IMG/VR virus record: IMGVR_UViG_3300035501_001483
Origin: a virus
Taxonomy: Duplodnaviria > Caudoviricetes
Strand: one strand, 5' to 3'
DNA: 64,000 bases
Shown: positions 25,145-57,144 of the stretch, one piece after another
How positions within the stretch are numbered: the first letter of the stretch is position 1
Layout of the letters: each line of letters opens with the position of its first letter
Translations under genes and position numbers: made by a program
The notes under the pieces: generated by a model
Told to the model about the DNA's origin: nothing
The model's database searches: none
Seen by the model: the letters and a program-made list of their open reading frames with translations, nothing else

Positions 25145-25564
25145 TTATTTCAGAAATGCGATCGCGATTGGATAGCCGCTCGTTGATAATTCATATACCG
25201 TTGATCCTGAAGATCCTTGCGAATTATAATATAATCCATATAGTGTGATCTGTGTGCCGCTATATATTCCACATATGGATAAATTGCCACTCACACCAAC
25301 CCCATATGAGATGGTTGCGGTTGGTAACGTTGTAATGCATGGGAAAATTACATAGTCGCCAGCTGTTCTAATCGCTGTAATAAGCGCAGTTCTTATTGTA
25401 GATGATGCAGATATTGATGATATGGATGTCCATGTGACTCCGCTACTCAATGAGTTCTTTAAAGTTACGCCAGATGATGGAACTAATGAGTAGATCTCGC
25501 ATGCCTGTCCACCTGTTGCAGCAACTGCTTGTAAATAGCTTTGAATAGTTAATCCATCTGCCAT
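25145..25564 (-). CDS. Cassette 1 ORF: AT-rich S/T/I/Y-rich adhesin-like protein
   Basis: Atypical codon usage, no SD, preceded by the conserved leader; adhesin role is inference. Confidence 0.65.
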   Translation of the reverse strand: MADGLTIQSYLQAVAATGGQACEIYSLVPSSGVTLKNSLSSGVTWTSISSISASSTIRTALITAIRTAGDYVIFPCITTLPTATISYGVGVSGNLSICGIYSGTQITLYGLYYNSQGSSGSTVYELSTSGYPIAIAFLK

Positions 25565-25770
25565 GATTTGTAAATTTGGCGCGGGCTTCCCGCGCCAGCT
25601 TCGTGTCTTTATATCTTATCGACTCTTCGTCAAATGCAATTCCGGGACTTCCAACACCACGCACTAAGCAGCAATTATCCCCGGATTCGGTCTTTCGCCA
25701 GGCCGTTGCATCCAACTTTAAGCGTCTAAGATATGGTTTTAAGCTTGAACAGTCGATCCTTGATCGACTC
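25565..25770 (-). repeat. Cassette 1 structured leader
   Basis: 91/101 identical to 54063-54163; covarying hairpins. Confidence 0.85.
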
Positions 25771-25809
25771 AAACGAGCAAAAAAAAGATGCCGCGAGGGC
25801 ATCTTCTTT

Positions 25810-26688
25810 TTAAACCATTTGCAAAGCCGCCAGCAACGTGTAGATAGTCACGTACGTCGTCCCATTCTTCAGCACTTCCTGAGAGATCACATAGTGGAAT
25901 CGCCCGCCAGATGTATCAATGTCAGGCTGGTCTACCTTGGCGATGGAGAAGATCTGGTCATTGCTCTTCAGGCCAGGGAAGAGATGCTTGGTGACTGCCA
26001 CTCTATCCCCATCCAGCGTCACAAACTCTGTGATGTCGTTGTCCAGCATGTCCTGAATGATCTCGCTCTCGATTTGCCGGAACTTCAGTCCTCTATTCAT
26101 ATACCCAACCAGGTACTGATAGGATGGATCATAGATGAGACTTTGCAACGCCTGCATGTAAGCATCTTCGCCGTCTCGTTTGCGGTTAGGCAGCTGCAGG
26201 AATGGAATCACCAGTTCGTCCTTTGCTGCGGTCTTATCCTCCCGCAGAATTAACGACTGGTTATATAGATCACCATTGCGTTCGCCCATGATCACCAACG
26301 GCTCCAACTTCGTCTTGTGGAACTCTTTCAGCTTGTCCGCTACTTCCACGGGATTGATCAGGAGCCCTCGCCAGCCAGACAGGTCGTATTGGTACTTACC
26401 CTTCTCATCAACGAAGGGCGTTACATACATGATGCGCTCCAGATACGGCACGGATGACCGCCCAGCCAAGATATAGCAGCTGGGATGTTCTGGATTGGTA
26501 GGGTCTACGTAGTAGGGCGGAGTCATCGTGCGCATCATAGACGATAACTCCGTGTTTCGATCGATGTCAATGTAGTACAGGTCAAACAGCTTGGCAGCCA
26601 TCGTGTTGATTGCTTTCATATCCATAAAGTTCTGAATTACGAAGTCCTCTCTGCTTGACAATTCGGTCGATTTGGGTCTTCTTGCCAT
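25810..26688 (-). CDS. Hypothetical protein
   Basis: ORF with SD and upstream ATATCAT motif. Confidence 0.75.
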   Translation of the reverse strand: MARRPKSTELSSREDFVIQNFMDMKAINTMAAKLFDLYYIDIDRNTELSSMMRTMTPPYYVDPTNPEHPSCYILAGRSSVPYLERIMYVTPFVDEKGKYQYDLSGWRGLLINPVEVADKLKEFHKTKLEPLVIMGERNGDLYNQSLILREDKTAAKDELVIPFLQLPNRKRDGEDAYMQALQSLIYDPSYQYLVGYMNRGLKFRQIESEIIQDMLDNDITEFVTLDGDRVAVTKHLFPGLKSNDQIFSIAKVDQPDIDTSGGRFHYVISQEVLKNGTTYVTIYTLLAALQMV

Positions 26689-26724
26689 TCAATCACGTCC
26701 TTTCTTCATATCAATGATATTTGA

Positions 26725-27297
26725 TCAAGGATACGTGAGGAATGCCTTGGGATTGTGGAGTCTCAATGCGCTGATGAACTCCGCGAAATCGTCGTTGATG
26801 CTGTCAGCTTCAGCCTCGGTGCAGTACCGGGCAATAACTGCGGCAGCGGTGGGGCCAAGCGCGTCGAGATGAATGATGGTGTACTCTTCGCCGGGTTTGT
26901 ACCATGCATCCATTCTGACCTTTTCAGGGTCAGACAGAACGCCAAGGATATGTCTATCACGCAAATAGGGAGGCAGAATATCGTCATGCATGATGAAGTA
27001 CTTTCCAATGTACTCTGAGACATCAATCTCAATCAGAACATTGGGCTGGTTTTTCTTGAAGCGACTCAGCACCAGCGCGTTAGACATGAATGACCAGTAC
27101 TCTGTGGCCAAACTGACGTCCAAGCCCTCAAGCGGATTACGCTGAGGGACTTTTATAGTGCCATACTCATTGGGACCGACTTTGACAATCTTCGCATGAT
27201 CGCCGACGTCCACCCCAACGTTCGTTCCTTCCACTTTAACAGTGACGGAGTCGCCACGGGGCTCTGTCTCGAACGTGAAATCAGAAATGTTACTCAT
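26725..27297 (-). CDS. Hypothetical protein
   Basis: ATGA overlap with the upstream gene. Confidence 0.7.
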   Translation of the reverse strand: MSNISDFTFETEPRGDSVTVKVEGTNVGVDVGDHAKIVKVGPNEYGTIKVPQRNPLEGLDVSLATEYWSFMSNALVLSRFKKNQPNVLIEIDVSEYIGKYFIMHDDILPPYLRDRHILGVLSDPEKVRMDAWYKPGEEYTIIHLDALGPTAAAVIARYCTEAEADSINDDFAEFISALRLHNPKAFLTYP

Positions 27298-27869
27298 CGA
27301 ATGATCCTCCCTTGGCATGCCGGCAGCAGAAATGCATCGGGGTGCGCCTCGATAAAGAGTTCAATCATATCGGACAGGACGTCGGCGTACTCCATGGCCG
27401 TGTCTTTCGTCATATATCGATTTACGAGGATACCACATTCCTTTCCAATGATGGGAAGAGGAATCACTGTGAATGTCTCATACAGGAAGCCATCCAGCGG
27501 TTCCGTAGCATCCCGGAAGAAAACGCAGACCGCGCCAAGCCTGCATGATGATGGCAGATATTCAGGTCGTATGAATACGGGATGGTCGGTATATTCTGAA
27601 ATTGAAATACCGATATGTGTCGTCGGATGCACTTTTCTCCACTGATGCATAGAATAGGCGCTGATGATCTCGGACCAGAAGTCAATAGCTTTCAGAACTT
27701 CCACTCCATCTTTGGTGTAGCAGAACGACGGATCCTTGATCTTTTCAGGAGCCTCTTCATGCTCGTCGTTGGTTTCTTTAGCAGCAGCCTTTGTGTAGGC
27801 CATTGCTTTAACCTCTTTCGGGGGTTTGCCAGCTTTGGCCGCTTCTAATTCTTTTTGAAATAAACCCAT
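27294..27869 (-). CDS. Hypothetical protein
   Basis: SD; in operon. Confidence 0.7.
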   Translation of the reverse strand: MGLFQKELEAAKAGKPPKEVKAMAYTKAAAKETNDEHEEAPEKIKDPSFCYTKDGVEVLKAIDFWSEIISAYSMHQWRKVHPTTHIGISISEYTDHPVFIRPEYLPSSCRLGAVCVFFRDATEPLDGFLYETFTVIPLPIIGKECGILVNRYMTKDTAMEYADVLSDMIELFIEAHPDAFLLPACQGRIIR

Positions 27870-27871
27870 GG

Positions 27872-28213
27872 TCAGTTCTCCTTTCGCATTTTCTCTAATT
27901 CGTACTGGGCTCGTTGCTGTTTCTGGTCAAGAGCCCGATAATATTCAAGGTCCCTGTGTAGGGTCACGGACGCATTATCAACGTCCTTTCTGGAGTGCCA
28001 TTCCCTCTCAGACACCAGCAAACATAGGCGTTCCAGGATGCGATATTTGAAACTTTGATTGCGGATCTCTTTTTGAATATCGAAGACATCCTGAATCATT
28101 TGGCCAATTCCCTTCACGATATATCGCCAGTCATCTTCTGTCAATGGCTCATACTTGGGTGCTGCCGGGACCTCGAAAAGATCGAGGTCCCAGTATTTGT
28201 CATTATTGGGCAT
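27872..28213 (-). CDS. Hypothetical protein
   Basis: SD; in operon. Confidence 0.7.
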   Translation of the reverse strand: MPNNDKYWDLDLFEVPAAPKYEPLTEDDWRYIVKGIGQMIQDVFDIQKEIRNQSFKYRILERLCLLVSEREWHSRKDVDNASVTLHRDLEYYRALDQKQQRAQYELEKMRKEN

Positions 28214-28231
28214 CTGGGCTAAGCTCCTCTC

Positions 28232-28795
28232 TTACGAGAAGTCATCAATGTGCTCCTCAATGTGAGCGAAAATTTGATCGGTAGTGGGGAGTTTCATGAA
28301 GATCTCCATCATCGCCCACCAATGCTTTCCAGTATAGCACTCCATGAAGAAGTCATTGGCATTCATTTTATACTCACGCTGCTCATTCTTATCGATGAAC
28401 TGAATTTGGTACTTGGGAATGTCAATGTGCTCCTTGAAGAAGAGCTTACCCACAAACGTCTTGGGAGACAGATTCTGGATAAGCATGATGGACGGATACA
28501 GAGAAGTCAAGTCCATATCGATCACAAAGTTGTGGATATGCTGCATGAGAGCACCAGCGATATTGAAGCCGGACTGCTTCTGCCGACGAGGCTCTGCCAC
28601 ATAGGCGCCATCATAGGCTTTGACCCGGCGTCTACCAGTGCCCGTTTTGGTAACGCCATCAGTTTTACTCGCTGTCTTGAAGCGATCGATCTTGGTCCGG
28701 GTACGACTCATGTGGTTCATACCCGGATTTCTGATGACGTCTAAGCGGGAGCGATAATCTTTTTGCTTCCCGTTGTTATCTTGAATATAAGCCAT
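28232..28795 (-). CDS. Family B DNA polymerase fragment carrying motif A
   Basis: YDGAYVAEP and DMDLTSLYPSIM...NLSP. Confidence 0.85.
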   Translation of the reverse strand: MAYIQDNNGKQKDYRSRLDVIRNPGMNHMSRTRTKIDRFKTASKTDGVTKTGTGRRRVKAYDGAYVAEPRRQKQSGFNIAGALMQHIHNFVIDMDLTSLYPSIMLIQNLSPKTFVGKLFFKEHIDIPKYQIQFIDKNEQREYKMNANDFFMECYTGKHWWAMMEIFMKLPTTDQIFAHIEEHIDDFS

Positions 28796-28798
28796 GAG

Positions 28799-29095
28799 TT
28801 AACCTCCTTGGCCCATCAGCTCCGCGCCCATCTCGATACGACCAGCAACTTCCTGGAGCTGCTCAATCTCTTCGGCATCCAGACCATCGGCACCCAGAAT
28901 CTGCTGAGCTAAGCTTGAATACTTCTGCTCAACGGTCTCCAGCTGTGCCTTGTCCATGCCGCGAATGGTCGCAAAGATGTCACAAAGCGCATCGATGATC
29001 TTGCGCTTTGCCATTCCGTTGATGTTGCGGGACTGGATGATCAGATTGCTGTAGCCAATGACCTTGGCCGCACATACAAATTGATCACTGTTCAT
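28799..29095 (-). CDS. Hypothetical protein
   Basis: aaggag SD; between the polymerase fragments. Confidence 0.7.
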   Translation of the reverse strand: MNSDQFVCAAKVIGYSNLIIQSRNINGMAKRKIIDALCDIFATIRGMDKAQLETVEQKYSSLAQQILGADGLDAEEIEQLQEVAGRIEMGAELMGQGG

Positions 29096-29110
29096 ATGCG
29101 TTCTCTCCTT

Positions 29111-29227
29111 TCACTTATTGCCGAAATTCTCCTTGATCGTCCAGACCAAGGCCCGGAGCAGATCAACGATCAGACTGACTGTGAGATAGATCGGAATCAG
29201 CTCCAGAAGATACAGAAACACTTTCAT
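29111..29227 (-). CDS. 38-aa membrane peptide
   Basis: MKVFLYLLELIPIYLTVSLIVDLLRALVWTIKENFGNK; fills the gap between genes. Confidence 0.5.
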   Translation of the reverse strand: MKVFLYLLELIPIYLTVSLIVDLLRALVWTIKENFGNK

Positions 29228-29244
29228 TACGATGCTACGTGTCA

Positions 29245-30747
29245 TTAGAAATCACCGCCTTCCTCAAAGCCGCCTTCAATGAGACTGTCGGCTTCATCAT
29301 AGGCATCCACGTCGTCGGGATCGGCCAGCAGTGCCTCTTGCGACATCAGGTCGAACTCCTCATGGGCCGCCTTATCATCGATGAACTTTCGATAATCAAA
29401 GGGCGCCATGATACGGTTGGCGTTGGTGCCCAAAATGAATCCCTCCTTGAAGAAATACTTGGTCAATGAAGTGGTCAACATCGTGGTGGACACAAACGCT
29501 TCAGGAATCAGCATACCGTGGTCGTAGCATCTATCGTATACGGCGTCAATGTCACCAGTGGTTCTACCAATGCCTTTCTGCAGAAGAACGTCCTTGATAT
29601 TGTACATGAAGTACTTCCAGAGGTTCTTATACATAAAGGTCTTGATGTTGCCTTCCTCTTCATAGTTGAGCTTCTCATCACGCAATTCCTTCTTGGCGAT
29701 GGCGTTCAACTTCATGGAAGGCAGTTTGCCGGCACCAGATCGCACGCCTGCATACATCCACATCTGACACATGATCAGTGGCTTGATAGAGATGACGCAG
29801 CGATGGTTCCGCTTATGGACTTGGATGTTGTCGTCCTCTTCAAAGAAGCAGGTCTTATACTTGAAGGCCGGGTCACAGATGATGGCTTCAGGCTCATAGC
29901 CCAATGCCAAAGGCCGTTCGATGAGGTTCCGGACATCATATGGAGCGTTCCACGCCATCAAATAATCCAGATTGGATCTTCTGATGAGCTCCCAGAAGAC
30001 CTGATGTAACTTGATCTCATCGTCAAATAAGATCAGATGATACGTCATCTCTCCATAGTATTCATCGAAGTTGGCATGACACTCTGCGATGAACTCGTCC
30101 ATGTGGTTCTTCAGGTAGTCCACTTGCTCATAGAAGTGCGCTTTGACTTCCTGTGTCTTTCCATAGTTGGGATTGGTCTCTGCCAAGATCGGCAGGTTGT
30201 CTTTGCACAGACCCAAGGTATACACGGTGTTCTTGGAATCGTCAATGAACGTGATGGCCGACGTCGGGGCCTCACCAGGAGCAGCAAAGCCATCGGCCTG
30301 AATGATATCAGATTCGATATCGAAGTATCCCACGTTGATGGGCTTGGGCAAGTCATTACCATACTCCAAAAGGAACTGAATCCAATACCAATGCTCGATT
30401 TTGATGTCATATCCAAATAAGAGCGGGGAATACTTGACATCATCGGGAGAGCACCCGAGAATATGGGCAATGTCGCGATCTCTATAGTGATAAGAAACGA
30501 CATGCTTATCGAGATTCTCCACCGATTCCCAGCAATCGATATACTGGGCTCTCGGCCAGAACTCTTTCTTGAGAATATAAATCTCATAGCAGGGGTGGTC
30601 GATCGTCTCAATGTAGGTCTGTCCTGTCACAATGTCCTTGAAAGTGATTGCGATGGCATCCCGAGCGCCCAACTCAAAGCAGTCGTAAGATACGATATGA
30701 ATGGGCATGAGACTTCGACCCTCAAATCGAGGATCTAAAAATTTCAT
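29245..30747 (-). CDS. Family B DNA polymerase N-terminal/3'-5' exonuclease fragment
   Basis: ExoI YFDIES, ExoII AWNAPYD, ExoIII YNIKDV. Confidence 0.85.
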   Translation of the reverse strand: MKFLDPRFEGRSLMPIHIVSYDCFELGARDAIAITFKDIVTGQTYIETIDHPCYEIYILKKEFWPRAQYIDCWESVENLDKHVVSYHYRDRDIAHILGCSPDDVKYSPLLFGYDIKIEHWYWIQFLLEYGNDLPKPINVGYFDIESDIIQADGFAAPGEAPTSAITFIDDSKNTVYTLGLCKDNLPILAETNPNYGKTQEVKAHFYEQVDYLKNHMDEFIAECHANFDEYYGEMTYHLILFDDEIKLHQVFWELIRRSNLDYLMAWNAPYDVRNLIERPLALGYEPEAIICDPAFKYKTCFFEEDDNIQVHKRNHRCVISIKPLIMCQMWMYAGVRSGAGKLPSMKLNAIAKKELRDEKLNYEEEGNIKTFMYKNLWKYFMYNIKDVLLQKGIGRTTGDIDAVYDRCYDHGMLIPEAFVSTTMLTTSLTKYFFKEGFILGTNANRIMAPFDYRKFIDDKAAHEEFDLMSQEALLADPDDVDAYDEADSLIEGGFEEGGDF

Positions 30748-30904
30748 AGGTTGATTTTCCTCTCCTTCCCTCCGGTAGTCGGGTTTACCACACATGTTAA
30801 GGGGTGCATAGCGTCTTAGAGACCAGAGAATTGTGGACCCTTCACAATCCCTTAATCTCAAGGAGATGATATACGCTCCATTTTAATTGAAAGGAGAATG
30901 AACC

Positions 30905-32023
30905 ATGGCTCCTAGAAAGAAAGATGTACAGCATCCTGCGCAGTCTAGCTTCAGCAGCTTACTGTCGCAGTTTGTGGGGCAGAACGAGGGGCTCTCCACC
31001 TTCAATGATGCTGCCACTGGCCTTTCCATCAGTCCAGCAATGCTGCATGAGACGGAAAAGCCAGCCAAGAAGAAACCTTCTGCCAAGAAAGGCAGTTATG
31101 ATGATATTCTGCTGGATGATGAAAAGCCGCTGGGTGATCTGGACGATATCGGATCACTTCTTCCCGATGACGATGACTACGATGAGAGCTTTGATACCCT
31201 GATTGAAAATGCTTTCATGGAAGATGAAGACGTCACTATGCGCAATAACCTCATTCGCATGGGACGAAAGTACGCTGTCAAGGGTATGGAAGAGGCCACC
31301 GAATCTTCCGAGGTAAACCGTGCTTTCATCAAGCAAGAACAGGCGTTGGAAGCTTTGATGGATGAGATGGACGCTGGTGCTGCCGCGCTGGATCGCGATA
31401 TTGAGCAGCTTCGCATGTCTCGTACCAAGAGCTTCAAGGCGCTATCTGATATGGCAGCTGTCCGTGCTTCTCTCTATAATAGCAAGCTGAGTGTCATCAA
31501 AGAGATGAGCAACATCACCAAGACCAAGTACGATATCAATATCAAGCTCAAGAAGGATTCTAACGCCGAATCGGCTGACACAGGTATGGCAGCTACCCAA
31601 GCTGTCCAGCGCTTGCTGTCCATCGGACGCCAGAACCTCATGGCTGGTGAAGAGGAGTACGTGTCGATGGGCGATTCGCCTGCCGACGCGCACTTTGATG
31701 ATGGGCGCGCCGAGACGGCATTACATCTGGCCGCTGATATCCCTCCTGCCGAAACCGATGGAGATAAATTCATTGAGCATGAGGGAGAGGGCGTGGAATA
31801 CGTCGTGGACATCAATTCCGAGGACGACTCCAAGATGATTTACGCTGTCAATAAAGATGGCAAGATCGTCGAGGATTATCCCATGCCCAGCAATCAAGAT
31901 CAGCTGTCTTTCTCTTTGAATGAATTGGCCGGTGAAGCAACCGATCAGCTGCAGCGCCGGTACAGACTACGGAGAGATGGTCAAGATGTACTACCTCGTG
32001 GATTTGGCGAAGACGAACTTTGA
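30905..32023 (+). CDS. Hypothetical coiled-coil protein
   Basis: aaggag SD; 372 aa. Confidence 0.75.
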   Translation: MAPRKKDVQHPAQSSFSSLLSQFVGQNEGLSTFNDAATGLSISPAMLHETEKPAKKKPSAKKGSYDDILLDDEKPLGDLDDIGSLLPDDDDYDESFDTLIENAFMEDEDVTMRNNLIRMGRKYAVKGMEEATESSEVNRAFIKQEQALEALMDEMDAGAAALDRDIEQLRMSRTKSFKALSDMAAVRASLYNSKLSVIKEMSNITKTKYDINIKLKKDSNAESADTGMAATQAVQRLLSIGRQNLMAGEEEYVSMGDSPADAHFDDGRAETALHLAADIPPAETDGDKFIEHEGEGVEYVVDINSEDDSKMIYAVNKDGKIVEDYPMPSNQDQLSFSLNELAGEATDQLQRRYRLRRDGQDVLPRGFGEDEL

Positions 32024-32075
32024 TCCCTGAGATGCCTAAGAGCACCTACCTAGAAGACTAGGTAGGTGCTCTTTG

Positions 32076-32235
32076 AAGTCATTCAAGGAATGACTGTTTT
32101 CAGATTAAGCTTTTCAAATTTGGCCTTACAATCCCGAGTTTTCAAGGCGATTTTTAGGCTCGGAATCTGCGTAAATTTTTAAGCGGGTTTACCAGACGGG
32201 ACGGCGCACTCCGTGCGCCATTCTTTAGCACTTAA
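32076..32235 (+). repeat. Cassette 2 structured leader
   Basis: agtcattc-aag-gaatgact-gtt hairpin; 20-mer identical to cassette 4; ggcgcac-tcc-gtgcgcc hairpin before the ATG. Confidence 0.8.
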
Positions 32236-32706
32236 ATGGGTGCATGTGTTGGATTACAAACGGGTATCGCCGGCGCTGGGCTCAAATTATCACAAACTCT
32301 AAAATACAACACGACTGCACAATCGTCCATATCGGCTTGGCAAAGCATTACAATACAATCATTTGCATTTAATTCGTACTCATTTGCATTTGCTCAAATA
32401 TCGTTCCCAGCAATCACAGTTACGAAAGCATCTTGCGAATTTTATAAAGCAGCAACTCTCACATATCGTGAATGGATTAAATCTGATATTGGAACTGTGT
32501 ATATCAGCTACACTTCTAGTGGCGTAGACATAATCTCTAACAGTTCCTTTACAATCTCGGCTTTAAATCAAATTCTTCCATATAGTTCAACGTATACGTA
32601 TGGAATATCTGTAACACTCAGCAGTACAACGACAGTCGGAAGCTCGGCGTATATAACCTTTTCAATGCCGAGTGTGACATGCACCGTCAATATGTACAGC
32701 ATCTAG
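32236..32706 (+). CDS. Cassette 2 ORF: AT-rich S/T/Y-rich adhesin-like protein
   Basis: Atypical codon usage; no SD. Confidence 0.65.
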   Translation: MGACVGLQTGIAGAGLKLSQTLKYNTTAQSSISAWQSITIQSFAFNSYSFAFAQISFPAITVTKASCEFYKAATLTYREWIKSDIGTVYISYTSSGVDIISNSSFTISALNQILPYSSTYTYGISVTLSSTTTVGSSAYITFSMPSVTCTVNMYSI

Positions 32707-32748
32707 CAAAAAAGAAGCTACTACCGCAAGGTAGTAGCTTCTCTTAGC

Positions 32749-34503
32749 TCAATCTTCCTCTTTCTCGTGAATCTCAATGGGCATATACTTGAGATCCTCG
32801 GAATAGGAGTCGTGCTGTTTCTTGGTGTACTTGATGAAGCTGTCCAGGTCAGTCATGGCCCGAGCAGGGATCTTGGCGATCCAGCTGGTCTTCAGCTCCG
32901 GATACTCCTTCAGAACTTCAGGGTGTTCCTTGAGATACTCATAGAGCACTTTGACGTACTCATATTCCGCATCGCAGGGGTCGGGATTGGGATTGAAGAA
33001 GAACCGGTCATACAGCTTCACGAAGGGCACGAACGACCCGGACATACCAGGATCGCTGTTGGAACTGACATTCAGGTCCAGAATGCCCAGCTGACTGGGA
33101 TGCAGATAGCGATACTTGGCAGAGATCATCTTGGAAGAAGTCTCGCCCAGAGAGTTGGGACCCTTGGAGCTGTACATGAGATCCTGCAGGAACGTCATGT
33201 CGTTCACGATGTCGTCGCTCTTCACCACATCGGATAGGTTCTTCATACCAGAGAGGATGATGTCAGACGGGAAGTTAAACAGCTCCAGCAGCGTGTCCAT
33301 GGTATTCATCTTGGACTTACTCTTCTTTTCGATGAGCTTATTGATGTTCTCGGAGACTTTCTTGCCGAGAGAGGACATGACGATGTATTCGTTCTTACGA
33401 ACTCTTTTATTCATCATATCCATGTTATTGCGCGTCTTCAGGGTGTTGAAGTTCAGAATCATCCAATACAGGATGTAGTAGATATTCTGGGTATAGAACT
33501 CCGGCAGACGCAGATCCTTCTCGGAGACGTGGTCATAGAGGCGCTCGATCATGTGCAGCGTCGTATAGCCCTTATCCCGGAAAGACTGGATATTCTTATT
33601 CTTGATAGACCCGATGTAACCGATGCGGCACACCCAATACTCACGGTCCTCCAGGTCTTTCCACTCGACCGGGAAGTCCTTATTGGAGCAGTAAATGAGC
33701 ATGCAGACTACATGACGCACCAGGTCATACTTCTCCATCAAGGTGGTAGGCACTCTGATGAAGACGTTATCCATGGGGAAATAGGTATAGATGGACAGCA
33801 GGTCTTCATCGACACGATCTACCAGCTCAATGATTCCACCCATATCGAAGAACTCGATAGCTCTGTGCATGCCCATCTTGGCGGCAAAAATCATCATGGG
33901 GTTAATGAACTTGGTCTTTTTCTTCGCACCCCGCCGCTTGGTCTTCGTATCCAGAGCATAAGAGTGAGAGGTCAAGTTCCATTCCTTGCCGGTCGAATCA
34001 CACAGCAGACGATTCTTGGTCTGATAGATGATGATAGGCATGCGGGATTTAAAGGTAACTTTGCCTCTCTGCGTATAGGTGTTGGCGTCGCACAACTGCC
34101 AAATGGGCTTCCAATACTTGCTGTTGATCAGCATCATGCCGTCCTCTTCTTTGGGGAGCAAGATGTGCTTGGTGATGACTGCCTCATTCAAATTGGTGTG
34201 AATGCGGTACGTGAAGCGCATCTCGTAGAAGCGGGTATCGGCCACAAACTTATTCTTGGGAATCTCAATCTGGTCCAGATGCTTCTTCTTGAAGTTGATA
34301 TTGATCGTGTGCGCATTGTAGTCAACATCATCCTGGTCATAAATGGTCTCAATATTGAGAATTTCGATATTTTCTATTGTCTCGAAATCCCTCATCACCA
34401 TCGTGACCAATTCTTCCAAGGGGATGTCTTCCTTCGCGTAGATGAAGTCCTCATTGAACTCATCTACGGCAGGGTTTGGGTATTCGTGAATGTATTCAAG
34501 CAT
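32749..34503 (-). CDS. RNA polymerase beta N-terminal subunit
   Basis: YSSKGPNSLG...RYLHPSQLGILDLNVSSNSDPGMSG matches the beta fork-loop region. Confidence 0.85.
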   Translation of the reverse strand: MLEYIHEYPNPAVDEFNEDFIYAKEDIPLEELVTMVMRDFETIENIEILNIETIYDQDDVDYNAHTININFKKKHLDQIEIPKNKFVADTRFYEMRFTYRIHTNLNEAVITKHILLPKEEDGMMLINSKYWKPIWQLCDANTYTQRGKVTFKSRMPIIIYQTKNRLLCDSTGKEWNLTSHSYALDTKTKRRGAKKKTKFINPMMIFAAKMGMHRAIEFFDMGGIIELVDRVDEDLLSIYTYFPMDNVFIRVPTTLMEKYDLVRHVVCMLIYCSNKDFPVEWKDLEDREYWVCRIGYIGSIKNKNIQSFRDKGYTTLHMIERLYDHVSEKDLRLPEFYTQNIYYILYWMILNFNTLKTRNNMDMMNKRVRKNEYIVMSSLGKKVSENINKLIEKKSKSKMNTMDTLLELFNFPSDIILSGMKNLSDVVKSDDIVNDMTFLQDLMYSSKGPNSLGETSSKMISAKYRYLHPSQLGILDLNVSSNSDPGMSGSFVPFVKLYDRFFFNPNPDPCDAEYEYVKVLYEYLKEHPEVLKEYPELKTSWIAKIPARAMTDLDSFIKYTKKQHDSYSEDLKYMPIEIHEKEED

Positions 34504-34641
34504 GAAAATGAAACCACCCTTCCTTTAAACTAATACGATGATATCCGTACTTAGTTATTTAGGGGAGAGTACATCTTCAAGTGGAAAACTAATGGTTAGA
34601 AGACCTATCCCTAAGATATTCTGAAGGAAGGAGACTATACC

Positions 34642-35262: not shown

Positions 35263-35273
35263 GGAGATCCATC

Positions 35274-37057: not shown

Positions 37058-37168
37058 ATTGATTTTCTCCTTTGCTTTCTAAAAGTTATGTGCATTGTGA
37101 GGGAGCCCATCGATCTTTAAATCAACAGACTCCCTCACAGTATGCCGTGGTAATGATATGCGGGTCAA

Positions 37169-42034: not shown

Positions 42035-42724
42035 ATGAACGGTGAAATCCTAGCTACCATCATCGTGGCTTTGATTGCGCTCTTCGGTACGATTGTCACT
42101 GCCGTACTACAGTACAGGGCTACCGAAGAGGCCAAGAAGGCCAAGCATTACGATGAAGAAAAACAGAGGGCAGACGCGGCCGAGCGTAAACTTGAAAAGG
42201 AGCAGCGTGATAGGGAGCACGAGCAAATCAAAGCCGAAATGGAAAGTCTTCATAAGGAGATTGCCAAGGTGCATGAAGATGTGCAACACCTTGGGGACCG
42301 AATCGATGCGGTCAAGAAGACGACAGATGCTCATCTGTCTTCCCATGATGATACTCTCGCCAAGATTTCCGATATTCTGTCGAGAGACGCACGGACCTAT
42401 TCGGGTCTGATGAAGATGCACTCTCAGACGGAGTCTCGACTGCAGGCCTTGCTCAACATCCAGATCTGCAGTATGCAGTTTGCCAATGACACTGCGGCTA
42501 CTCTTCATGTTGTGGGTGACATTCTCGGTCATACGCTGGAGGACGAAGAGGCGCAGGGTAAACTCTCTGAAGCGGTCTCCAAACACGAGGGCGCTCAGAA
42601 TAACTTCATCAAAGAGCTGATGAATCAGCAGCAATCACTGTTTAACTCCAATATGATGGACAACGCATCTGAATCTGCTGAAGAACGCTCCGATGACGTC
42701 AAGAATCGGCTATCTAACCGTTAA
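42035..42724 (+). CDS. Membrane-anchored coiled-coil protein (holin-like?)
   Basis: N-terminal TM; late promoter AACA-N6-TAA at 41994. Confidence 0.55.
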   Translation: MNGEILATIIVALIALFGTIVTAVLQYRATEEAKKAKHYDEEKQRADAAERKLEKEQRDREHEQIKAEMESLHKEIAKVHEDVQHLGDRIDAVKKTTDAHLSSHDDTLAKISDILSRDARTYSGLMKMHSQTESRLQALLNIQICSMQFANDTAATLHVVGDILGHTLEDEEAQGKLSEAVSKHEGAQNNFIKELMNQQQSLFNSNMMDNASESAEERSDDVKNRLSNR

Positions 42725-42762
42725 AAGAAGACTACCATCTCTGGTAGTCTTCTTTTTTGATG

Positions 42763-46875: not shown

Positions 46876-46886
46876 AGATTACCTCC

Positions 46887-47624: not shown

Positions 47625-47641
47625 GATGCGCTATATCCTTT

Positions 47642-48373: not shown

Positions 48374-48466
48374 GTTTTGATGCCTCCTTTCTACCAGAAT
48401 GATATGTGGTTAGGTAATGGGCAAAAAAGAAGAGACTAGATTCAATCTAGTCTCTTCTTTGCGGGG

Positions 48467-50356: not shown

Positions 50357-50480
50357 GTTATTTCAGGTCCTTTCTGTGCGTATTTGAAATGACGCTGCGG
50401 AAGCGCCAAATCTTTCATAAATTAAAATGTATTACGAGCTTCCTCCAAGGACATGATATTGCCATGTAGAAATATACGGG

Positions 50481-51278: not shown

Positions 51279-51522
51279 AAGAGACATACCTCCCTTCTTT
51301 AGTGTGATGTATGTGAAAGAGTTTATTTTAAAATGTATTACACTTGTGACTTGGATAAATTTGAGGCGATTTGAGTTTTCTTTATATATCATCCTGATGA
51401 GAATAGCAAACCATTGAATAGAATGATGGAATTTGCTTGAAAGTGTAGCATGAGCGTGGAAATAGCCTACGCTTCAGCGGCATAGAAAGAACCCTGGCAG
51501 AGCAACTTCACTTCAGAGATTC

Positions 51523-51562
51523 CCGTATTTACCCGCTTTTCACTCGTATATCATTTTTATGA
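51523..51562 (+). promoter_or_regulatory. Putative early promoter driving the tRNA-like RNA
   Basis: ccgtattt-N17-atatcatttttatga. Confidence 0.7.
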
Positions 51563-51570
51563 GAAAGAAA

Positions 51571-51643
51571 AAGACCATAGCTCAGATGGGAGAGCGTCAG
51601 TCTAATAAACTGAAGGTCGTCGGTTCGAGTCCGGCTGGGTGGC
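51571..51643 (+). tRNA. tRNA-like RNA or pseudo-tRNA, anticodon AAT (Ile), broken acceptor stem
   Basis: D arm gctc/gagc; anticodon arm tcagt-ctAATaa-actga; T arm gtcgg-ttcgagt-ccggc; acceptor stem pairs at only 3-4 of 7 positions. Confidence 0.7.
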
Positions 51644-51735
51644 TGGCGCCCGAAAGGGCGCTGGCTTCTTTCTTGCCGTCAACTCAAAAAAAATTGAGAA
51701 GGATATGCTACCATGAGCATATCCTTCTTTTCATC

Positions 51736-52257
51736 CTAATCATGCCAGAGGTAAATGGTTCCATCGCCAGTACCCCACTTGGTCTTTTTCATATCGATCA
51801 GGCGTTGGTTACTGCTGCCTCTAAAGAGTAGACTGATATCTTTCTTTTCTTGTATGAAGGGGCCGTCTACCAGCACATCAAGATATTCCATCATCAGTTG
51901 GGCACATATACCTACGCCGCCGCATCTGATGTCTTCATAGGTGTATCCAGTATATAGCCAAATGGAAGTATTGGGCACCTCTTCACGCACTCTCTGCACA
52001 AACTTCAACACAGTTCTCTGGTTGGGAGGTGCCAACGGCTCTCCACCCAGAAGGGTAAGACCATTGATCTCCGGCGTTTGCAGGGCAGTGATGATGCTAT
52101 CTTCTACTTCCTTGGTGAAAGGGTCGCCATAGTTGTAAGGCCAGGCAACCTCATTGAAACAGCCAGGGCAATGATGAGGGCATCCAGAGACAAATACTGA
52201 GACTCTCACGCCAGGTCCATCGGCAATGTCAGTCCATTTGATATTTGCATAATTCAT
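51736..52257 (-). CDS. nrdG: Anaerobic ribonucleotide reductase activase
   Basis: DGPGVRVSVFVSGCPHHCPGCFN, LLGGEP, RGSSNQR. Confidence 0.95.
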   Translation of the reverse strand: MNYANIKWTDIADGPGVRVSVFVSGCPHHCPGCFNEVAWPYNYGDPFTKEVEDSIITALQTPEINGLTLLGGEPLAPPNQRTVLKFVQRVREEVPNTSIWLYTGYTYEDIRCGGVGICAQLMMEYLDVLVDGPFIQEKKDISLLFRGSSNQRLIDMKKTKWGTGDGTIYLWHD

Positions 52258-52352
52258 AATGGATAACCTCCTTCAAGAAAGAATAAATGATTGCTCTAGA
52301 TAGGGAATGTAAAAGAGTCTATGGAAATTCGTTCCCATAGACTCTGTTCAGA

Positions 52353-53660
52353 TTAAATGGTGGAGCTTCCGCCCACAAAGGTGGCTTGGACTTGGACTGT
52401 ATACATGGAGCTCTCCTTGGTGAAGGTAGCTGCCATGTTGGAGATCCGATAATGGCCAATATAGTCCTGATATTCCGTGTTATCTGTGGTGAAGATGTAG
52501 TCCTTATTGGGAGAAAGAGCCCGGATATTTACATCTTGCGCCACGATATTGAGCGTTTTCTGAGACTGCTCCATGGTTGTCTTGGCGTGCTCGGCTGTAT
52601 CTTCACCTTCATCCTGGACAACCACACGATTGACGAGGCCTTTCTTGGACGTGGAAAGCTCGGAGACTTTCAGGTCACTATTGAGCGTAGTGACTTCACC
52701 GGTGTTGGAGTTGATAGACAGGATATTGCCACCTACCAACTGATCTCCAAACATAGATTCGTTCGTCACGGAGATGGAGTTGCCGATGATATTGATCGCG
52801 CAGTACTTCTCCTTACCATTGGCATAGAAACCAGACTTCATCGTTGCACTGTCGCCCTTAGCCGGGAAAGACGTTAAGTAGACCGTCTTGATCTCGTTAT
52901 TGATCCAGGCGGTTGCGCCCAGCTTTTTATTGAGGACGTAAATGAAATCATAGTCAAAGAAGACTGTCGTACCTGCCTTGTGAAGGCTGTAGATGTTACA
53001 GGTTCGCAGCAGGCCTTGAGAGGCTGCCAGTGGAGGCAAGATGAGCTGATCGAAGGTCTTTACGTTGTCACTGGGGCTCATCAGAACGTTGGAGAGACCC
53101 AGTTTGGACATATAGTATGCCACGGCATCGGTGGCCGTCGCACCACTCAGCACCTTATTGATGATCTGGTTGGAGTTGAAGATGTGATCGGATCGATAGA
53201 GACCCATCACCAGGGACTTGTTATTATCATAGGCATACTGAGTCGAGGTCTCATCATTATCTTCCAGCTCAGATTTGGCCTTCTCACCAGGAGATGCGCT
53301 GGTCAGCTTTGGGGACTGGTTATCAATGAATGCATAGAAGCGGGTATCCAAGATGGTGCCCATCATGTTGATGGCGGTGTCGGGGTCCATCTCATAAATG
53401 TCTTCAAAGAGGCCATATTCGATCTTCAGGTCTACATAGACATCTTCAGAAGCTTCCATAACGTCGGAGTAGACCTGGTCAGGCACGATGCAACGGAACT
53501 CCAAATAGGGATAGAGATAGTTATCATAGTCCTTCTCAATCACCCAGTTACCAATACGAGCTGGATTCACTTCATAGGGCTCGTCATAGCCAGGGATAAT
53601 CAGGTTGAATTTGCTGATCTTATATTTGGCAAACTTAAACTCTATATCTTTAACATCCAT
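52353..53660 (-). CDS. Putative virion (baseplate/tail) protein
   Basis: Late promoter GACA-N6-TAA at 53703-53715(-); beta-rich. Confidence 0.55.
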   Translation of the reverse strand: MDVKDIEFKFAKYKISKFNLIIPGYDEPYEVNPARIGNWVIEKDYDNYLYPYLEFRCIVPDQVYSDVMEASEDVYVDLKIEYGLFEDIYEMDPDTAINMMGTILDTRFYAFIDNQSPKLTSASPGEKAKSELEDNDETSTQYAYDNNKSLVMGLYRSDHIFNSNQIINKVLSGATATDAVAYYMSKLGLSNVLMSPSDNVKTFDQLILPPLAASQGLLRTCNIYSLHKAGTTVFFDYDFIYVLNKKLGATAWINNEIKTVYLTSFPAKGDSATMKSGFYANGKEKYCAINIIGNSISVTNESMFGDQLVGGNILSINSNTGEVTTLNSDLKVSELSTSKKGLVNRVVVQDEGEDTAEHAKTTMEQSQKTLNIVAQDVNIRALSPNKDYIFTTDNTEYQDYIGHYRISNMAATFTKESSMYTVQVQATFVGGSSTI

Positions 53661-53825
53661 TTCAAAGATTCGCCTTCTTCACTTCGAGGGATTGCTTCTT
53701 GATTAGCCGATTGTCAATGGGCTCGAAATTGGTGTGAGAGATGAGAATAACAGAGCGATAAAATTCTGACTTTTATCGTACTATGTACATATAGAAGATA
53801 ATACCTTTTGAAGGAGGAGAATTTT

Positions 53826-54017
53826 ATGGCACTTCCTGACGTAAACACCATTCGTGAGTACTACCTGAGTGGTAAGTGGAACGATAGAATGCTGCAGGTG
53901 GCGTTGGTCTGCAAAGCCATCACCAAGGACGATGTGGAGTCCATCAAGGCCGAGAAAGCCGCCGCTGCTGAGAAGTCTACCAAAAAGAGCAGCAAGAAGA
54001 GCAAGGCTACTACCTGA
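53826..54017 (+). CDS. XkdX-like small phage protein
   Basis: IREYYLSGKW...AITKDD pattern; aaggagg SD. Confidence 0.6.
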   Translation: MALPDVNTIREYYLSGKWNDRMLQVALVCKAITKDDVESIKAEKAAAAEKSTKKSSKKSKATT

Positions 54018-54061
54018 AAGAAGAGACGATACCTGACGGCGCAGGTATCGTCTCTTCTTTT

Positions 54062-54265
54062 AAGTCGTTCAAGGAACGACTGTTCATGCTTAAAACCATA
54101 TCTTAGATGCTTAAAGTAAGTAGAAACGGCCTGGCGAAAGACCGAATCCAGGGATAATTGCTGTTTACGCTTAGTGTTGGAAATTTCTGGAAATATATTT
54201 ACTTAATGGTTGATAGGTTATGGCTGCACACCGACTGGCGCGGATACCGCGCCAAAATACAGTTT
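54062..54265 (+). repeat. Cassette 3 structured leader
   Basis: Near-identical to the cassette 1 leader in inverted orientation. Confidence 0.85.
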
Positions 54266-54604
54266 ATGGCAAATAGTATAAGCATGAATCCATTCAATAT
54301 AACGTCGAATATAGCAAATTACAAAGGATACTGGGTAGCAGGGAGTCCTTCCAAATCAATAACTGTTACACTTAGTCCAGTTGCTATTTATGCGGTTTGC
54401 TGGGCATCGGGTCCGTTTCCTGTCTTATTCAGCAATGGATTTCCATTAGCACCTAGCGGTTCTGTATACTTTTCAACGAGCGACTCAACTATTGCAAATC
54501 CTCAGGCTTGTGCATCCATGAGCGCCACTGGTGATACAATATCATGTGCATGTTCGACGTATAAAGTATGCATAATAGCATTTATCGTAACGGATATTTC
54601 ATAA
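54266..54604 (+). CDS. Cassette 3 ORF: AT-rich adhesin-like protein (MANSISMN...)
   Basis: ATG placed by alignment with cassette 1; no SD. Confidence 0.65.
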   Translation: MANSISMNPFNITSNIANYKGYWVAGSPSKSITVTLSPVAIYAVCWASGPFPVLFSNGFPLAPSGSVYFSTSDSTIANPQACASMSATGDTISCACSTYKVCIIAFIVTDIS

Positions 54605-54668
54605 TTGCATCTCTTTAATACTCACAACCCAAAAGACAACCCTCCAAAATATAAGGAGGGTTGTCTTT

Positions 54669-55565
54669 ATGGACAAGATTTCTATTCCGGAGATGGCTTA
54701 TACGCATTCTGGCATTTTCCATGCGGATGATGTCTGTGCTTATGCCTTTCTAAGCATTATCAATCCTCAAATTACGCTGACTAGACTTACCCGCGTCGAT
54801 CAGGACGTCTGGGATCTGGTCGCACAGTCTCCTGAGAAGATCATCGTATTTGATATTGGAGGAGGCAAGTATGATCACCATACCAAAGAGACCATCGAGT
54901 ACCGTGACCAGGAGAATAAGCTCAATCCATATTCATCTTTTGGCAAAATTGTGCGGGATTTCTGGCCTTATGTGCTGAATAACGAGAAGGCGTATGAGGT
55001 CTTCGATAACAGTTTTGTGCTGGGAATCGATATGCAAGACGCATCGGGCTCCATGTGGCATGGCGTCGTGAATACGTTTTCTATGTCCATTGGTTCATTT
55101 AATGGCCTTTGGACAGAGCCGCAGTCTGATGAGTTACAGCTCAAACGTTTCAAGAAAGCCACCTCTTATGCCAAGGAAGTCATCTTGCGGTATATCGCAC
55201 GTGCCAATTCCACTGCAGAAGCCGATTCCATCGTACTAAAAGCGTTGGAGAGTAAGACGCCTGGCGCGCATCATCTGTATCTAGATAAATACGTACCTTA
55301 CGCATCCACGCTGAATCGCGTCAATGCCGATGTCAACTGGGTCATTTATCCGTCTATGCGTATCGGCTGGCAGATCTATGCCGTCGTTGATCTCCATAAT
55401 AAAGACAAGCAACTTATCCCTGAGGATATGGCAGAACGTTGGCGCAAAGATCCGGACTGCATCTTCGTGCATCCTAGCGGCTTTACGGCATGCTTTAAGT
55501 TCCCTGATAAGGCTATCAAAGCATGCATCGAATTGGACGACCTTTATGACGACTTAAACTCATGA
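54669..55565 (+). CDS. MYG1-family (DHH-like) exonuclease
   Basis: THSGIFHADD, DIGGGKYDHH, FVHPSGF. Confidence 0.88.
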   Translation: MDKISIPEMAYTHSGIFHADDVCAYAFLSIINPQITLTRLTRVDQDVWDLVAQSPEKIIVFDIGGGKYDHHTKETIEYRDQENKLNPYSSFGKIVRDFWPYVLNNEKAYEVFDNSFVLGIDMQDASGSMWHGVVNTFSMSIGSFNGLWTEPQSDELQLKRFKKATSYAKEVILRYIARANSTAEADSIVLKALESKTPGAHHLYLDKYVPYASTLNRVNADVNWVIYPSMRIGWQIYAVVDLHNKDKQLIPEDMAERWRKDPDCIFVHPSGFTACFKFPDKAIKACIELDDLYDDLNS

Positions 55566-55688
55566 ATTTACGAGTCCCTTGGATTTCCAAGGGACTCTTT
55601 ATCCGTATATCATTCTTGTGGTTGAAGAAAGAACTGTTTACAGCGAGATTCCTTGAATCCTCATAGTCATAAAAGTGACGATGAAAGG

Positions 55689-56435
55689 ATGGATAAGCAC
55701 AACATGTGGAATGCTATCAAGGAAGCTGTAAAGGCCGGCCTGGAAGTTATGTCCAAGGCTCCGGTCAGCGGCATCATTAAAGCTGGCATCTTCGTGGGTG
55801 TTGCCGGCTTCACTCTCTGGGTGATGATTCGCCGCACCAAGAAGATGCATGAAGACGCACAGGAAAAGCGTTATACCTCTCCCGTGGATGAGATCCTGGG
55901 CAAGAGCTATGCGACCGATCCTGACGTCTATGATGATATGGATCCCATCGCCAAGAAGATCTGCAAGAAGCTGAATCGTGGCTGGAAGAGCAAGAAAAAG
56001 CGCAAGAAAGAAGCCGCCAAGCGTGCTCAGCGCGAAGTTCGCTATAAGACGGTCTCCGTGTTTGACGATGATGACTTTGATCTCAATGCTGACGAAGAAG
56101 CTGAAGAAGAGGCGCCTGCTAAGAAGAGCACTTCTAAGAAGGAGTATCACTTCTATGAGGACGCCAATGATATGCTCATGGCTGAAAGCGCTCGTCGTAA
56201 GCGCAAGAAGAATCCCGCCAAGGTGAAGAAAGCCAAGGAGAACTATCGCCGGAATAAGGCAAAGAAGAGCTCCATGGAGACTTTGGCCAAAGAGTGGAAG
56301 GAAAGCGGCGTTGCCGACTCCAAGACCGCCAAGAAGCGCCTGGACGAGATCGCTCGTGAGCTGGGCCTGCCCGTTGACGATATCGACGACAGAATCAGCG
56401 AAGAGACTCGCAAAGCTAATCCTTCCCTGTTTTAA
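55689..56435 (+). CDS. Membrane-anchored lysine-rich protein
   Basis: Single TM; ATATCATT motif upstream; start uncertain. Confidence 0.7.
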   Translation: MDKHNMWNAIKEAVKAGLEVMSKAPVSGIIKAGIFVGVAGFTLWVMIRRTKKMHEDAQEKRYTSPVDEILGKSYATDPDVYDDMDPIAKKICKKLNRGWKSKKKRKKEAAKRAQREVRYKTVSVFDDDDFDLNADEEAEEEAPAKKSTSKKEYHFYEDANDMLMAESARRKRKKNPAKVKKAKENYRRNKAKKSSMETLAKEWKESGVADSKTAKKRLDEIARELGLPVDDIDDRISEETRKANPSLF

Positions 56436-56526
56436 GGGAGAAGTCAAAGGGTAAAGCGCCAAAGAGGACCACTGCCGTAAGGTAGTGGTCCTCTATGTTT
56501 CTGAAATGGGAAAGTGCGCTCTTTTT

Positions 56527-57006
56527 TTATTGGAGGGTATAAAAGATAAGATCATATTGAATTTTCAATGTTACGCCAGATGATCCCAAGCTTGACCATA
56601 ACATATAATCCTCACCAGGATATGCTATAAGAGTACCAGTTGATGTTAGATTATACGTATTGGTCGTAACACTATAAATACTGCCGTTATATGCGTTGGC
56701 ATAGTACACATCAAGCCCGTTAGGATACCATGTATTACCGTCCGACGACAACTTTGGAGTCATCCTAGAGAAATGAATGTAGAAATTATTATATGACGAT
56801 ATTGAAAATGACATGTTATGAAATATAAATACGTACGTGAATGGACTGTATTGTATGAAACTGCTACTGTATAATGGTAATTGGGTATATGGTATAGCAT
56901 AATACGAAGACCCTGATTGCGCACTAACGGTGACGTTTTGAGCAACAGTAACTGATTTTATTGATACACCTAGCGTCACATCATGATTGAGAATTGCATT
57001 GCCCAT
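56527..57006 (-). CDS. Cassette 4 ORF: AT-rich S/Y/T-rich adhesin-like protein
   Basis: Atypical codon usage; no SD. Confidence 0.65.
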   Translation of the reverse strand: MGNAILNHDVTLGVSIKSVTVAQNVTVSAQSGSSYYAIPYTQLPLYSSSFIQYSPFTYVFIFHNMSFSISSYNNFYIHFSRMTPKLSSDGNTWYPNGLDVYYANAYNGSIYSVTTNTYNLTSTGTLIAYPGEDYMLWSSLGSSGVTLKIQYDLIFYTLQ

Positions 57007-57144
57007 TGAGGTCTGTGGCGACGCCGAAGGCGTCGCCCGGATGAGCCTATACGGCGCCCTACCCTGGAAATTCCGCTTAAAAATTTACGCAGGCGGGCCA
57101 ATTCCGCTTAGAAAGCTCCACTTGGAACAGTCCTTACAGGACTT
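57007..57144 (-). repeat. Cassette 4 structured leader
   Basis: agtcct-gta-aggact-gtt; 20-mer identical to cassette 2; ggcgacgcc-ttc-ggcgtcgcc before the ATG. Confidence 0.8.

Follow-up and report, generated by a model that had tools for sequence, protein, structure and literature searches.

The 64,000-nucleotide stretch of virus DNA in IMG/VR record IMGVR_UViG_3300035501_001483 (Duplodnaviria; Caudoviricetes), hereafter the window, carries four dispersed loci, C1 to C4, in each of which a small hairpin, a leader and a second, GC-rich hairpin precede a small open reading frame (ORF) of aberrant composition. We propose that the four loci are probably copies of a clade-specific, self-contained expression cassette of the 'moron' type, a proposal that extends to the way in which the cassettes recombine, are transcribed and translated, and to their products.

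Architecture of the four cassettes

The elements follow each other in the same order at C1-C4: the intrinsic terminator of the upstream gene, a triloop hairpin with GTT, the leader, a GC-rich triloop hairpin, an ATG lacking a Shine-Dalgarno (SD) sequence, the ORF and a terminator. The upstream terminator lies 0-10 nt from the small hairpin, the GC-rich hairpin is separated from the ATG by 10-16 nt, and the ORFs have 112-159 codons. All six elements of the architecture claimed in the original prediction were found, as listed below.

25779-25810, minus strand: C1 upstream terminator, serving gene 25810-26688
25748-25769, minus strand: C1 small hairpin, 8-bp stem with AAG triloop plus GTT, used in the motif count and stem comparison
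25565-25747, minus strand: C1 leader of subtype A, with the GC triloop hairpin at 25578-25596, 13 nt from the ATG; SD absent
25145-25564, minus strand: C1 ORF, protein P0001, 139 amino acids (aa), start MADGL; GC content at third codon positions (GC3) 0.30, charged residues 6%
25108-25139, minus strand: C1 downstream terminator, 14-bp stem, bidirectional in appearance
32040-32074, plus strand: C2 upstream terminator, serving gene 30905-32023
32077-32098, plus strand: C2 small hairpin, 8-bp stem with AAG triloop plus GTT, same sequence as hairpin b of metagenome contig L016
32099-32235, plus strand: C2 leader of subtype B, with the GC triloop hairpin at 32203-32219; SD absent
32236-32706, plus strand: C2 ORF, protein P0002, 156 aa, start MGACV; GC3 0.36
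32709-32746, plus strand: C2 downstream terminator, common to the convergent DNA polymerase gene 32749-34503
54019-54061, plus strand: C3 upstream terminator, serving gene 53808-54017
54063-54084, plus strand: C3 small hairpin, 8-bp stem with AAG triloop plus GTT, used in the motif count and stem comparison
54085-54265, plus strand: C3 leader of subtype A, with the GC triloop hairpin at 54237-54253; SD absent
54266-54604, plus strand: C3 ORF, protein P0003, 112 aa, start MANSI; GC3 0.30; uncalled on the identical public contig L011
54634-54668, plus strand: C3 downstream terminator, whose 3' arm holds the SD of the MYG1-like gene 54669-55565
57145-57178, minus strand: C4 upstream terminator, serving gene 57181-57783
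57126-57143, minus strand: C4 small hairpin, 6-bp stem with GTA triloop plus GTT; CCTGTAAGG core, as in hairpins of the related phage G001
57007-57125, minus strand: C4 leader of subtype B, with the GC triloop hairpin at 57017-57037; SD absent
56527-57006, minus strand: C4 ORF, protein P0004, 159 aa, start MGNAI; GC3 0.34; uncalled on L011
56461-56493, minus strand: C4 downstream terminator, as read from the sequence

A terminator theme, ..ACTACC-N4-GGTAGT.., recurs in many intergenic regions of the window (25108-25139, 32713-32742, 57145-57178, 56461-56493 and others), and the copies of a 33-nt repeat at 60528-60560, 15637-15669 and 42723-42755 are listed with it. This terminator family is not cassette-specific.

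Besides a group I intron and a diversity-generating retroelement (DGR), the window has genes for a major head protein, terminase, tail sheath and tube, for pieces of a B-family DNA polymerase, helicase and ligase, and for beta-type subunits of RNA polymerase, a gene content which indicates a large tailed phage. In the cluster record of its MYG1-like protein the longest contig has about 138 kb. Three independent samples contain segments identical to the window; no intermediate relative of the window phage was found, the next MYG1-like homologue being only 47% identical. Relatives were found via the polymerase beside C2, with G001 the closest among IMG/VR records and G002 the next, and the identities given below are those of the amino acids of that protein.

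G001, 176 kb: 79% identity in the polymerase
G002, a 78-kb fragment: 73% identity in the polymerase
G003-G005, three distant, AT-rich phages: 49-56% identity in the polymerase

The small hairpin

The pattern AGTC-N(6-14)-GACTGTT occurs four times in the window, solely at C1-C4, where shuffled sequences lead to an expectation of 0.42 and none of 100 shuffles reaches four. Comparison of the 15 distinct stem-loops found in the window, in G001 and on L016 revealed that the six loop-proximal pairs are 100% Watson-Crick, with zero G.T in about 90 stem pairs. Double substitutions were found at pairs 1-4 in the AAG-loop type and at pairs 4-5 in the GTA-loop type, so that the compensatory stem changes noted originally are confirmed on this larger set. 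TGT follows 3' of the hairpin in all 15 stem-loops, and the loop is strand-specific, reading AAG or GTA on the sense strand every time.

Searches of IMG/VR with the AGTC..GACTGTT hairpin pattern or exact leader blocks gave no match, comparison of the leaders with GenBank phages found no close DNA relatives, and leader BLAST against five related IMG/VR records returned only chance matches within coding regions. A scan of metagenomes for the hairpin pattern yielded 20 loci, among which L016 is the sole true relative; L024 and the others look like chance. The hairpin followed by TGT provides a simple search handle for genes that are skipped by public callers.

Leaders and translation starts

Two leader subtypes had been predicted, and both are recognisable. 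The subtype A leaders of C1 and C3 are 87% identical over 128 nt; those of subtype B, at C2 and C4, have shorter blocks in common, including one identical block of 20 nt. All four leaders fold with z of -2.0 to -4.4 against shuffled controls. The stem of the GC hairpin covaries and tolerates G-U on the sense strand. The leaders vary in sequence and in size (47 to about 190 nt), the two hairpins being their sole common parts. An SD core, mostly AAGGAGG, was found at 37 of the 62 other window ORFs and at 0 of the 4 cassette ORFs. The GC hairpin and A/U-rich spacer in front of an AUG without SD suggest that the cassettes may be under special translational control.

A promoter scan of 24900-33000 found no sigma-70-like site within the C1 or C2 leader, and by-eye reading found no -35/-10 pair in any of the four leaders. 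A k-mer search of the window intergenic regions for a shared promoter motif gave nothing tied to the cassettes. Inspection by eye pointed to a possible CTGTT-N6-7-TAAG..CTTT element common to the C2, C4 and G002 leaders. Rfam covariance models gave no match at the gathering score, nor at E<=5 over the four loci.

Another sequence, the octamer AATGATAT / ATATCATT, is present in six intergenic regions (16892-17077, 11277-11382, 37058-37168, 48374-48466, 51393-51735 and 55566-55637), with sites in the region upstream of the sheath gene, and is absent from the cassette leaders. This octamer may be a phage promoter element.

Cassette ORFs and their proteins

The cassette ORFs show the four lowest GC3 values of the 66 window ORFs (0.30-0.36 compared with a median of 0.60; Mann-Whitney p = 1.4e-6), in keeping with the AT-richness reported for them, and they are also lowest in charged residues (5-6% compared with a median of 26% in the other window ORFs). 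They alone among the 66 ORFs begin with M-[AGS]-[DENA]-[AGSC]-[ILVFM]. A compositional filter for small ORFs with charged residues <10% and S+T+N+G+Y >35% retrieved exactly these four from the window. The four ORFs had been described as mutually dissimilar; their pairwise similarities are indeed marginal, but the shared N-terminal motif, unique to them in the window, was overlooked in that description. The whole cassette protein set has in common the N-terminal motif M-[AGS]-[DEN]-[AGS]-[ILVF], a hydrophobic last strand and a charged-residue content of about 6%. As far as their sequences tell, the cassette proteins are one set by context, N-terminal motif, size, composition and hydrophobic last strand, with homology undemonstrated.

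Every copy contains an open frame of 95-176 codons, always in the leader's orientation, in DNA of about 40% GC. Alleles of the G001 lineage gave ratios of non-synonymous to synonymous substitution (dN/dS) of 0.25-0.33 for ORF 29143 and 0.07 for ORF 28563. Therefore, the cassette ORFs are coding and under purifying selection in that lineage. On L011, which is identical to the window (C3 region 5812-6464, C4 region 8230-8976), the gene calls omit both the C3 and the C4 ORF; the cassette protein set is thus under-represented in protein databases.

No Pfam or PHROG match to the cassette proteins was found, and a PDB sequence search with the family profile gave no match, the best E-value being 0.24. 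Profile searches of 5.8 and 1.84 billion proteins recovered members of these same phages only, with 8 matches among the 1.84 billion representatives. Together with the Rfam result, these searches bear out the suspicion that the cassette design was undescribed.

The G001 paralogues align convincingly as proteins. For the window proteins, the structure model of P0002 from a 19-row alignment was unusable, with a predicted local distance difference test score (pLDDT) of 41, and the ESM Atlas model of P0001 had a pLDDT of 0.38. The AlphaFold2 model of a G001 paralogue reached a pLDDT of 70 and a predicted template modelling score (pTM) of 0.66, and shows a short helix at the N-terminus leading into a beta-sandwich of eight strands. 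Its fold matches include a monocin side fibre (Z 5.9), phage K gp144 (5.7), a phiKZ baseplate protein (5.5), a phage cement protein (4.8) and the Helix pomatia agglutinin (4.7). These best matches (Z 4.7-5.9), rich in fibre, baseplate, decoration and H-type-lectin domains, lie below the level of kinship, and Foldseek with the same model gave a template modelling score (TM) of at most 0.49. A language-model (ESM) feature score of 0.82 to the H_lectin and Gp53-like_C clusters is a weak pointer to similar domains. The models thus offer a weak lead that the cassette products may be virion-surface or lectin-like modules; the adhesin-like receptor-binding tips of the original prediction are, with every fold Z below 6, weakly supported.

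The window holds a decoration domain common to capsid and sheath: the capsid C-terminal domain (aa 479-621; 1446-1877) shares 40% identity with a segment inserted into the tail sheath (aa 277-419; 17906-18334), and a second, weaker copy is found at sheath aa 125-257. No similarity was found between the cassette proteins and this domain.

Cassettes in related phages

The window phage has at least four to five cassettes, G001 no fewer than 14 and G002 no fewer than six. A structural scan of G001 found 14 hairpins of both loop types, 12 with the CCTGTAAGG core of C4 and two of AAG type followed by CTGTT. Behind 11 of the 14 lie a leader of 47-108 nt and a low-GC3 ORF starting MAEA.., MADA.., MEA.., MDS.. 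or MDA.., and 8 of these 11 leaders carry the covarying GC hairpin; at the three hairpins 15086, 53517 and 167693 a family-like ORF was not recovered. The compositional filter, applied to phages with a genome GC of 44 to 55%, returned six low-GC3 ORFs from G001, plus three ordinary-GC3 ORFs outside the cassette set. A seventh G001 cassette ORF (83896-84426), which adjoins the polymerase, was found by position. From G002 the filter returned six ORFs with GC3 mostly near 0.3; members in this phage have a different 50-nt leader without the hairpin, with the conserved sequence GCTGTTGC..TAAGAGCTTTGTC. Profile search and compositional filter found no credible cassette ORF in G003, G004 or G005.

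The contig L016 (metagenome contig ERZ1664526 NODE-3120) carries three cassette ORFs in tandem at 1-1356 on the minus strand, two of them starting (M/L)DALGL. Its hairpins overlap the preceding stop codon, a terminator follows only the last ORF, and in one hairpin copy a stem pair is swapped from G-C to C-G. The further copies of leader and hairpin that had been anticipated beyond the window are therefore present, both in G001 and in tandem on L016. The predicted abutment on a terminator holds at C1-C4 but is not obligatory, as the hairpin directly follows the stop codon of the previous cassette in L016 and in parts of G001.

Variation, loss and rearrangement

Mosaic cassette alleles were found in the G001 lineage. 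Both flanking terminators, the hairpin, the leader, the last strand and the first 25-40 codons are near-identical, and the ORF interior differs between strains by up to about 50% of nucleotides, at synonymous and non-synonymous sites alike. The synonymous divergence (dS) is 0.21-0.44 in the variable cassette ORF compared with 0.09 in the adjoining cassette. Such a mosaic with conserved flanks is a signature of allele replacement by recombination, not of targeted mutagenesis. In the window's own lineage, however, C3 and C4 show 100% identity among the three samples, so that the claimed hypervariability of the ORFs stands for related lineages and not for these two loci.

Loss of a single cassette was also observed. 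The contig L050 lacks exactly one cassette; missing are an ORF with its terminator, as well as the hairpin and most of the leader that come next. The crossover joins equivalent positions of two leaders within a common stretch of 15 nt plus 7 nt, about 60 nt downstream of the hairpin. An 'empty' variant, as the original prediction had envisaged, thus exists for one cassette, with its junction inside the leaders.

Synteny between the window and G001 is broken at 7 of 34 testable junctions, and all four cassettes lie in such junctions (hypergeometric P = 7.5e-4); the matching ends of the G001 blocks also abut cassettes. Gene 25810-26688 of the window and its homologue in G001 each have a cassette behind them, and the polymerase gene faces one in both phages; ORFs and leader types differ. 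The expectation of conserved leaders ahead of very different ORFs is borne out, and positions with the same flanks in G001 hold a cassette with a different ORF.

Proposed mechanism and alternative explanations

Based on these observations, we propose the following mechanism. In the manner of the promoter-early stem-loop elements (PeSLs) known from T4-type phages, the repeated leaders would supply portable homology at which homologous recombination may delete, duplicate or replace cassettes and join genome blocks. The small hairpin followed by TGT would be the transcription-start signal of the cassette, a structure-dependent promoter element read in DNA by the phage transcription machinery, analogous to, not homologous with, the hairpin promoters of phage N4. 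The remaining leader would form the 5' untranslated region, in which the GC hairpin may set up SD-independent, probably regulated, translation. The products are predicted to be small beta-sandwich proteins, possibly virion-attached binding modules that dock via their shared N-terminus.

Judged by its sequence pattern, the hairpin followed by TGT is most likely part of a DNA-level start signal. The promoter cannot sit upstream, because an unconserved terminator ends 0-10 nt before the hairpin, and a reading at the DNA level is suggested because the small stem never uses G.T, whereas the GC stem uses G-U on the sense strand. It is also possible, if on the unlikely side, that the small hairpin acts in RNA, as a 5'-terminal or processing stem-loop (a stabiliser, or a site of binding or cleavage for a phage or host protein) within a leader that is a cis-regulatory RNA; the transcripts would then either come through a leaky upstream terminator or begin within its T-tract. 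The strand-specific loop is consistent with such a role, as are the leaders that fold better than shuffles and the covarying GC stem, and in tandem arrays without terminators the hairpin must be transcribed. However, the small stem is free of G-U in its roughly 90 pairs, the leaders differ in sequence and length (47 to about 190 nt) and share nothing but the two hairpins, as would not be expected of an aptamer, and no Rfam match was obtained at E<=5. For the hairpin itself, a role as an RNA 5' or processing element is nearly as likely as that of a DNA-level start signal.

Site-specific mobility of the cassettes, in the manner of integron attC sites or IS200/IS605 elements, would require a dedicated recombinase that recognises the hairpin as a folded single strand and cleaves at the GT(T) beside it. 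The conserved hairpin with invariant GT at the 5' boundary of each unit, the ORF-hairpin-ORF tandem arrays and the presence or absence of whole units would suit such elements. Nevertheless, we consider this improbable, as no integrase, Y1/HUH transposase or resolvase is among the listed Pfam matches (53 window proteins, 25/26 families) or the flanking genes, and the cassette positions are kept beside the same flanking genes in G001. An attC site is defined by R''(RYYYAAC)/R'(GTTRRRY) together with IntI; at C1-C4 GTT follows the hairpin, but the preceding AAC partner is absent and no integrase is among the listed matches. IS200/IS605 elements have TnpA (Y1) or TnpB and hairpins at both ends; neither protein is among the listed Pfam matches of the window, and the 3' ends of the cassettes are ordinary terminators. 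Neither the suggested mobilisation by the leaders nor an identity of the leaders with the ends of an insertion sequence (IS) is upheld, with no recombinase among the listed Pfam hits and the only mapped deletion junction in short leader homology rather than at the hairpin.

It is less probable still that the cassette ORFs are no genes at all and that the conserved parts are non-coding RNAs with accidental open frames. This would explain why public gene callers skip C3 and C4, why SD sequences are absent, codons unusual and database families lacking, and why AlphaFold2 fails on the window proteins. But it is hardly compatible with open frames of 95-176 codons in every copy and in the leader's orientation, with dN/dS of 0.07-0.33, with the shared N-terminal motif, or with G001 paralogues that align as proteins and yield a beta-sandwich model of pTM 0.66.

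Least probable of all is diversification of the cassette ORFs by the window's DGR or by other targeted hypermutation. The DGR is complete, with a reverse transcriptase gene (60571-61941, minus strand), a template repeat (TR, 62182-62343, minus strand) and a variable repeat (VR, 63573-63734), the last of these located 3'-terminally in gene 62526-63728. Over their 162 nt the two repeats show 89% identity, and all 18 positions at which they differ are adenines in TR. A functional-looking DGR 3.5 kb from C4, and ORF interiors that vary highly between strains of related lineages, could suggest such a process. However, the sole match of TR in the window is the VR, and no cassette resembles TR; allelic changes are not adenine-specific and hit synonymous sites as expected (dS 0.21-0.44), and C3 and C4 are invariant across the three samples. 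DGR-driven diversification of the cassettes is effectively refuted, and the idea that the cassettes work alongside the DGR was not supported, as TR and VR belong to gene 62526-63728.

Several points weigh against the proposed moron-type cassette. The start site and the DNA-versus-RNA role of the small hairpin are predictions from sequence, and we know of no hairpin promoter for an RNA polymerase of the multisubunit type, which is the type that this clade encodes. Some G002 members have an ordinary SD and no leader. The four window proteins gave hhalign probabilities of <1% each against the G001 subfamily, and pairwise E-values are 0.006 or worse; as these proteins lack detectable homology, the term 'one family' rests on context, N-terminal motif and composition. 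The deletion evidence is from the G001 lineage and not from the window phage, whose three sampled copies are identical. The association of cassettes with synteny breakpoints could reflect mere tolerance of both at operon boundaries. The fully specified version of our proposal, in which an extruded DNA hairpin is the promoter of a multisubunit RNA polymerase, the GC-hairpin leader brings about a dedicated SD-independent initiation, the products are swappable, tag-docked, lectin-like virion modules and the leaders form the recombination scaffold, is doubtful as a whole.

Comparison with known systems

PeSLs are repeated terminator/promoter units upstream of ORFans in T4-type phages, where they mediate modular shuffling (Arbiol et al. 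2010, PMC2839356; Comeau et al. 2014, PMC4122927). They carry a consensus sigma-70 promoter, end in an SD and precede unrelated ORFans (PMC2839356, PMC4122927). By analogy, the PeSL is the closest described system. Similar to PeSLs, the cassettes are short composite regulatory units with a stem-loop or terminator, present in many intergenic copies directly upstream of small orphan genes, and insertions or deletions, replacements and rearrangements are bounded by the repeats (here the leader-leader junction of L050 and the synteny breaks at 4 of 4 cassettes). In contrast, the cassettes have neither a sigma-70 promoter (by scan in the C1 and C2 leaders, by eye in all four) nor an SD; their hallmark is a covarying triloop hairpin with TGT and a folded leader of 47-190 nt, and the ORFs behind them encode one recognisable protein set, low in charge and alike at the N-terminus. 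The cassettes are therefore best read, by this analogy, as a structural variant of the PeSL-type regulatory and recombination cassette that serves a clade-specific set of orphan genes. What is new here is the hairpin design, the starts without SD and the protein set, whereas repeated regulatory cassettes as recombination scaffolds were known already from PeSLs. An uncultured jumbo-phage clade would thus hold a second, structurally different design for such cassettes.

The promoter of the N4 virion RNA polymerase is used by a single-subunit enzyme and has a short stem of 5-7 bp and a 3-nt loop, G-N-A on the template strand and closed by G:C, with the start about 8 nt downstream (PMC4496689). 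It shows that recognition of a DNA hairpin by a polymerase exists (PMC4496689). The cassette hairpin is comparable in its 5-8 bp stem, its 3-nt loop, its fixed and freely covarying stem positions and its location just upstream of a transcribed gene. It differs in the AAG or GTA loops on the sense strand, and the polymerase pieces in the window are of the multisubunit type. If the proposed role holds, structure-dependent promoter recognition would extend beyond N4-like phages, and SD-less initiation would be systematic alongside the strong SD sites of the phage's other genes.

Morons, a concept of Hendrix and colleagues, mostly represent one-off acquisitions, each of an unrelated gene behind a host-type promoter. 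The cassettes share with them the independent, terminator-bounded unit between two genes and a base composition unlike that of the neighbours, but are a multicopy, clade-wide design with a leader of their own. If the products were virion-bound binding modules, the phage would possess a recombination-based host-range repertoire beside the mutation-based one of the DGR.

Other features of the window

The group I intron (6523-6872, plus strand), scored at 76.9 bits by Rfam, separates ORFs 5522-6553 and 6916-8436. G001 and G002 have homologues of both halves spaced about 30 nt apart, and are therefore without the intron. A tRNA-like sequence at 51575-51638 on the plus strand scored 49 bits with positions 5-66 of the Rfam tRNA model and was uncalled by ARAGORN; the 343-nt intergenic region around it coincides with a synteny breakpoint relative to G001. 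Beside C4, two small genes lie between two DUF2262-like paralogues in inverted orientation (57181-57783, minus strand, and 59382-60005, plus strand), whose nucleotide sequences are 68% identical over 176 nt.

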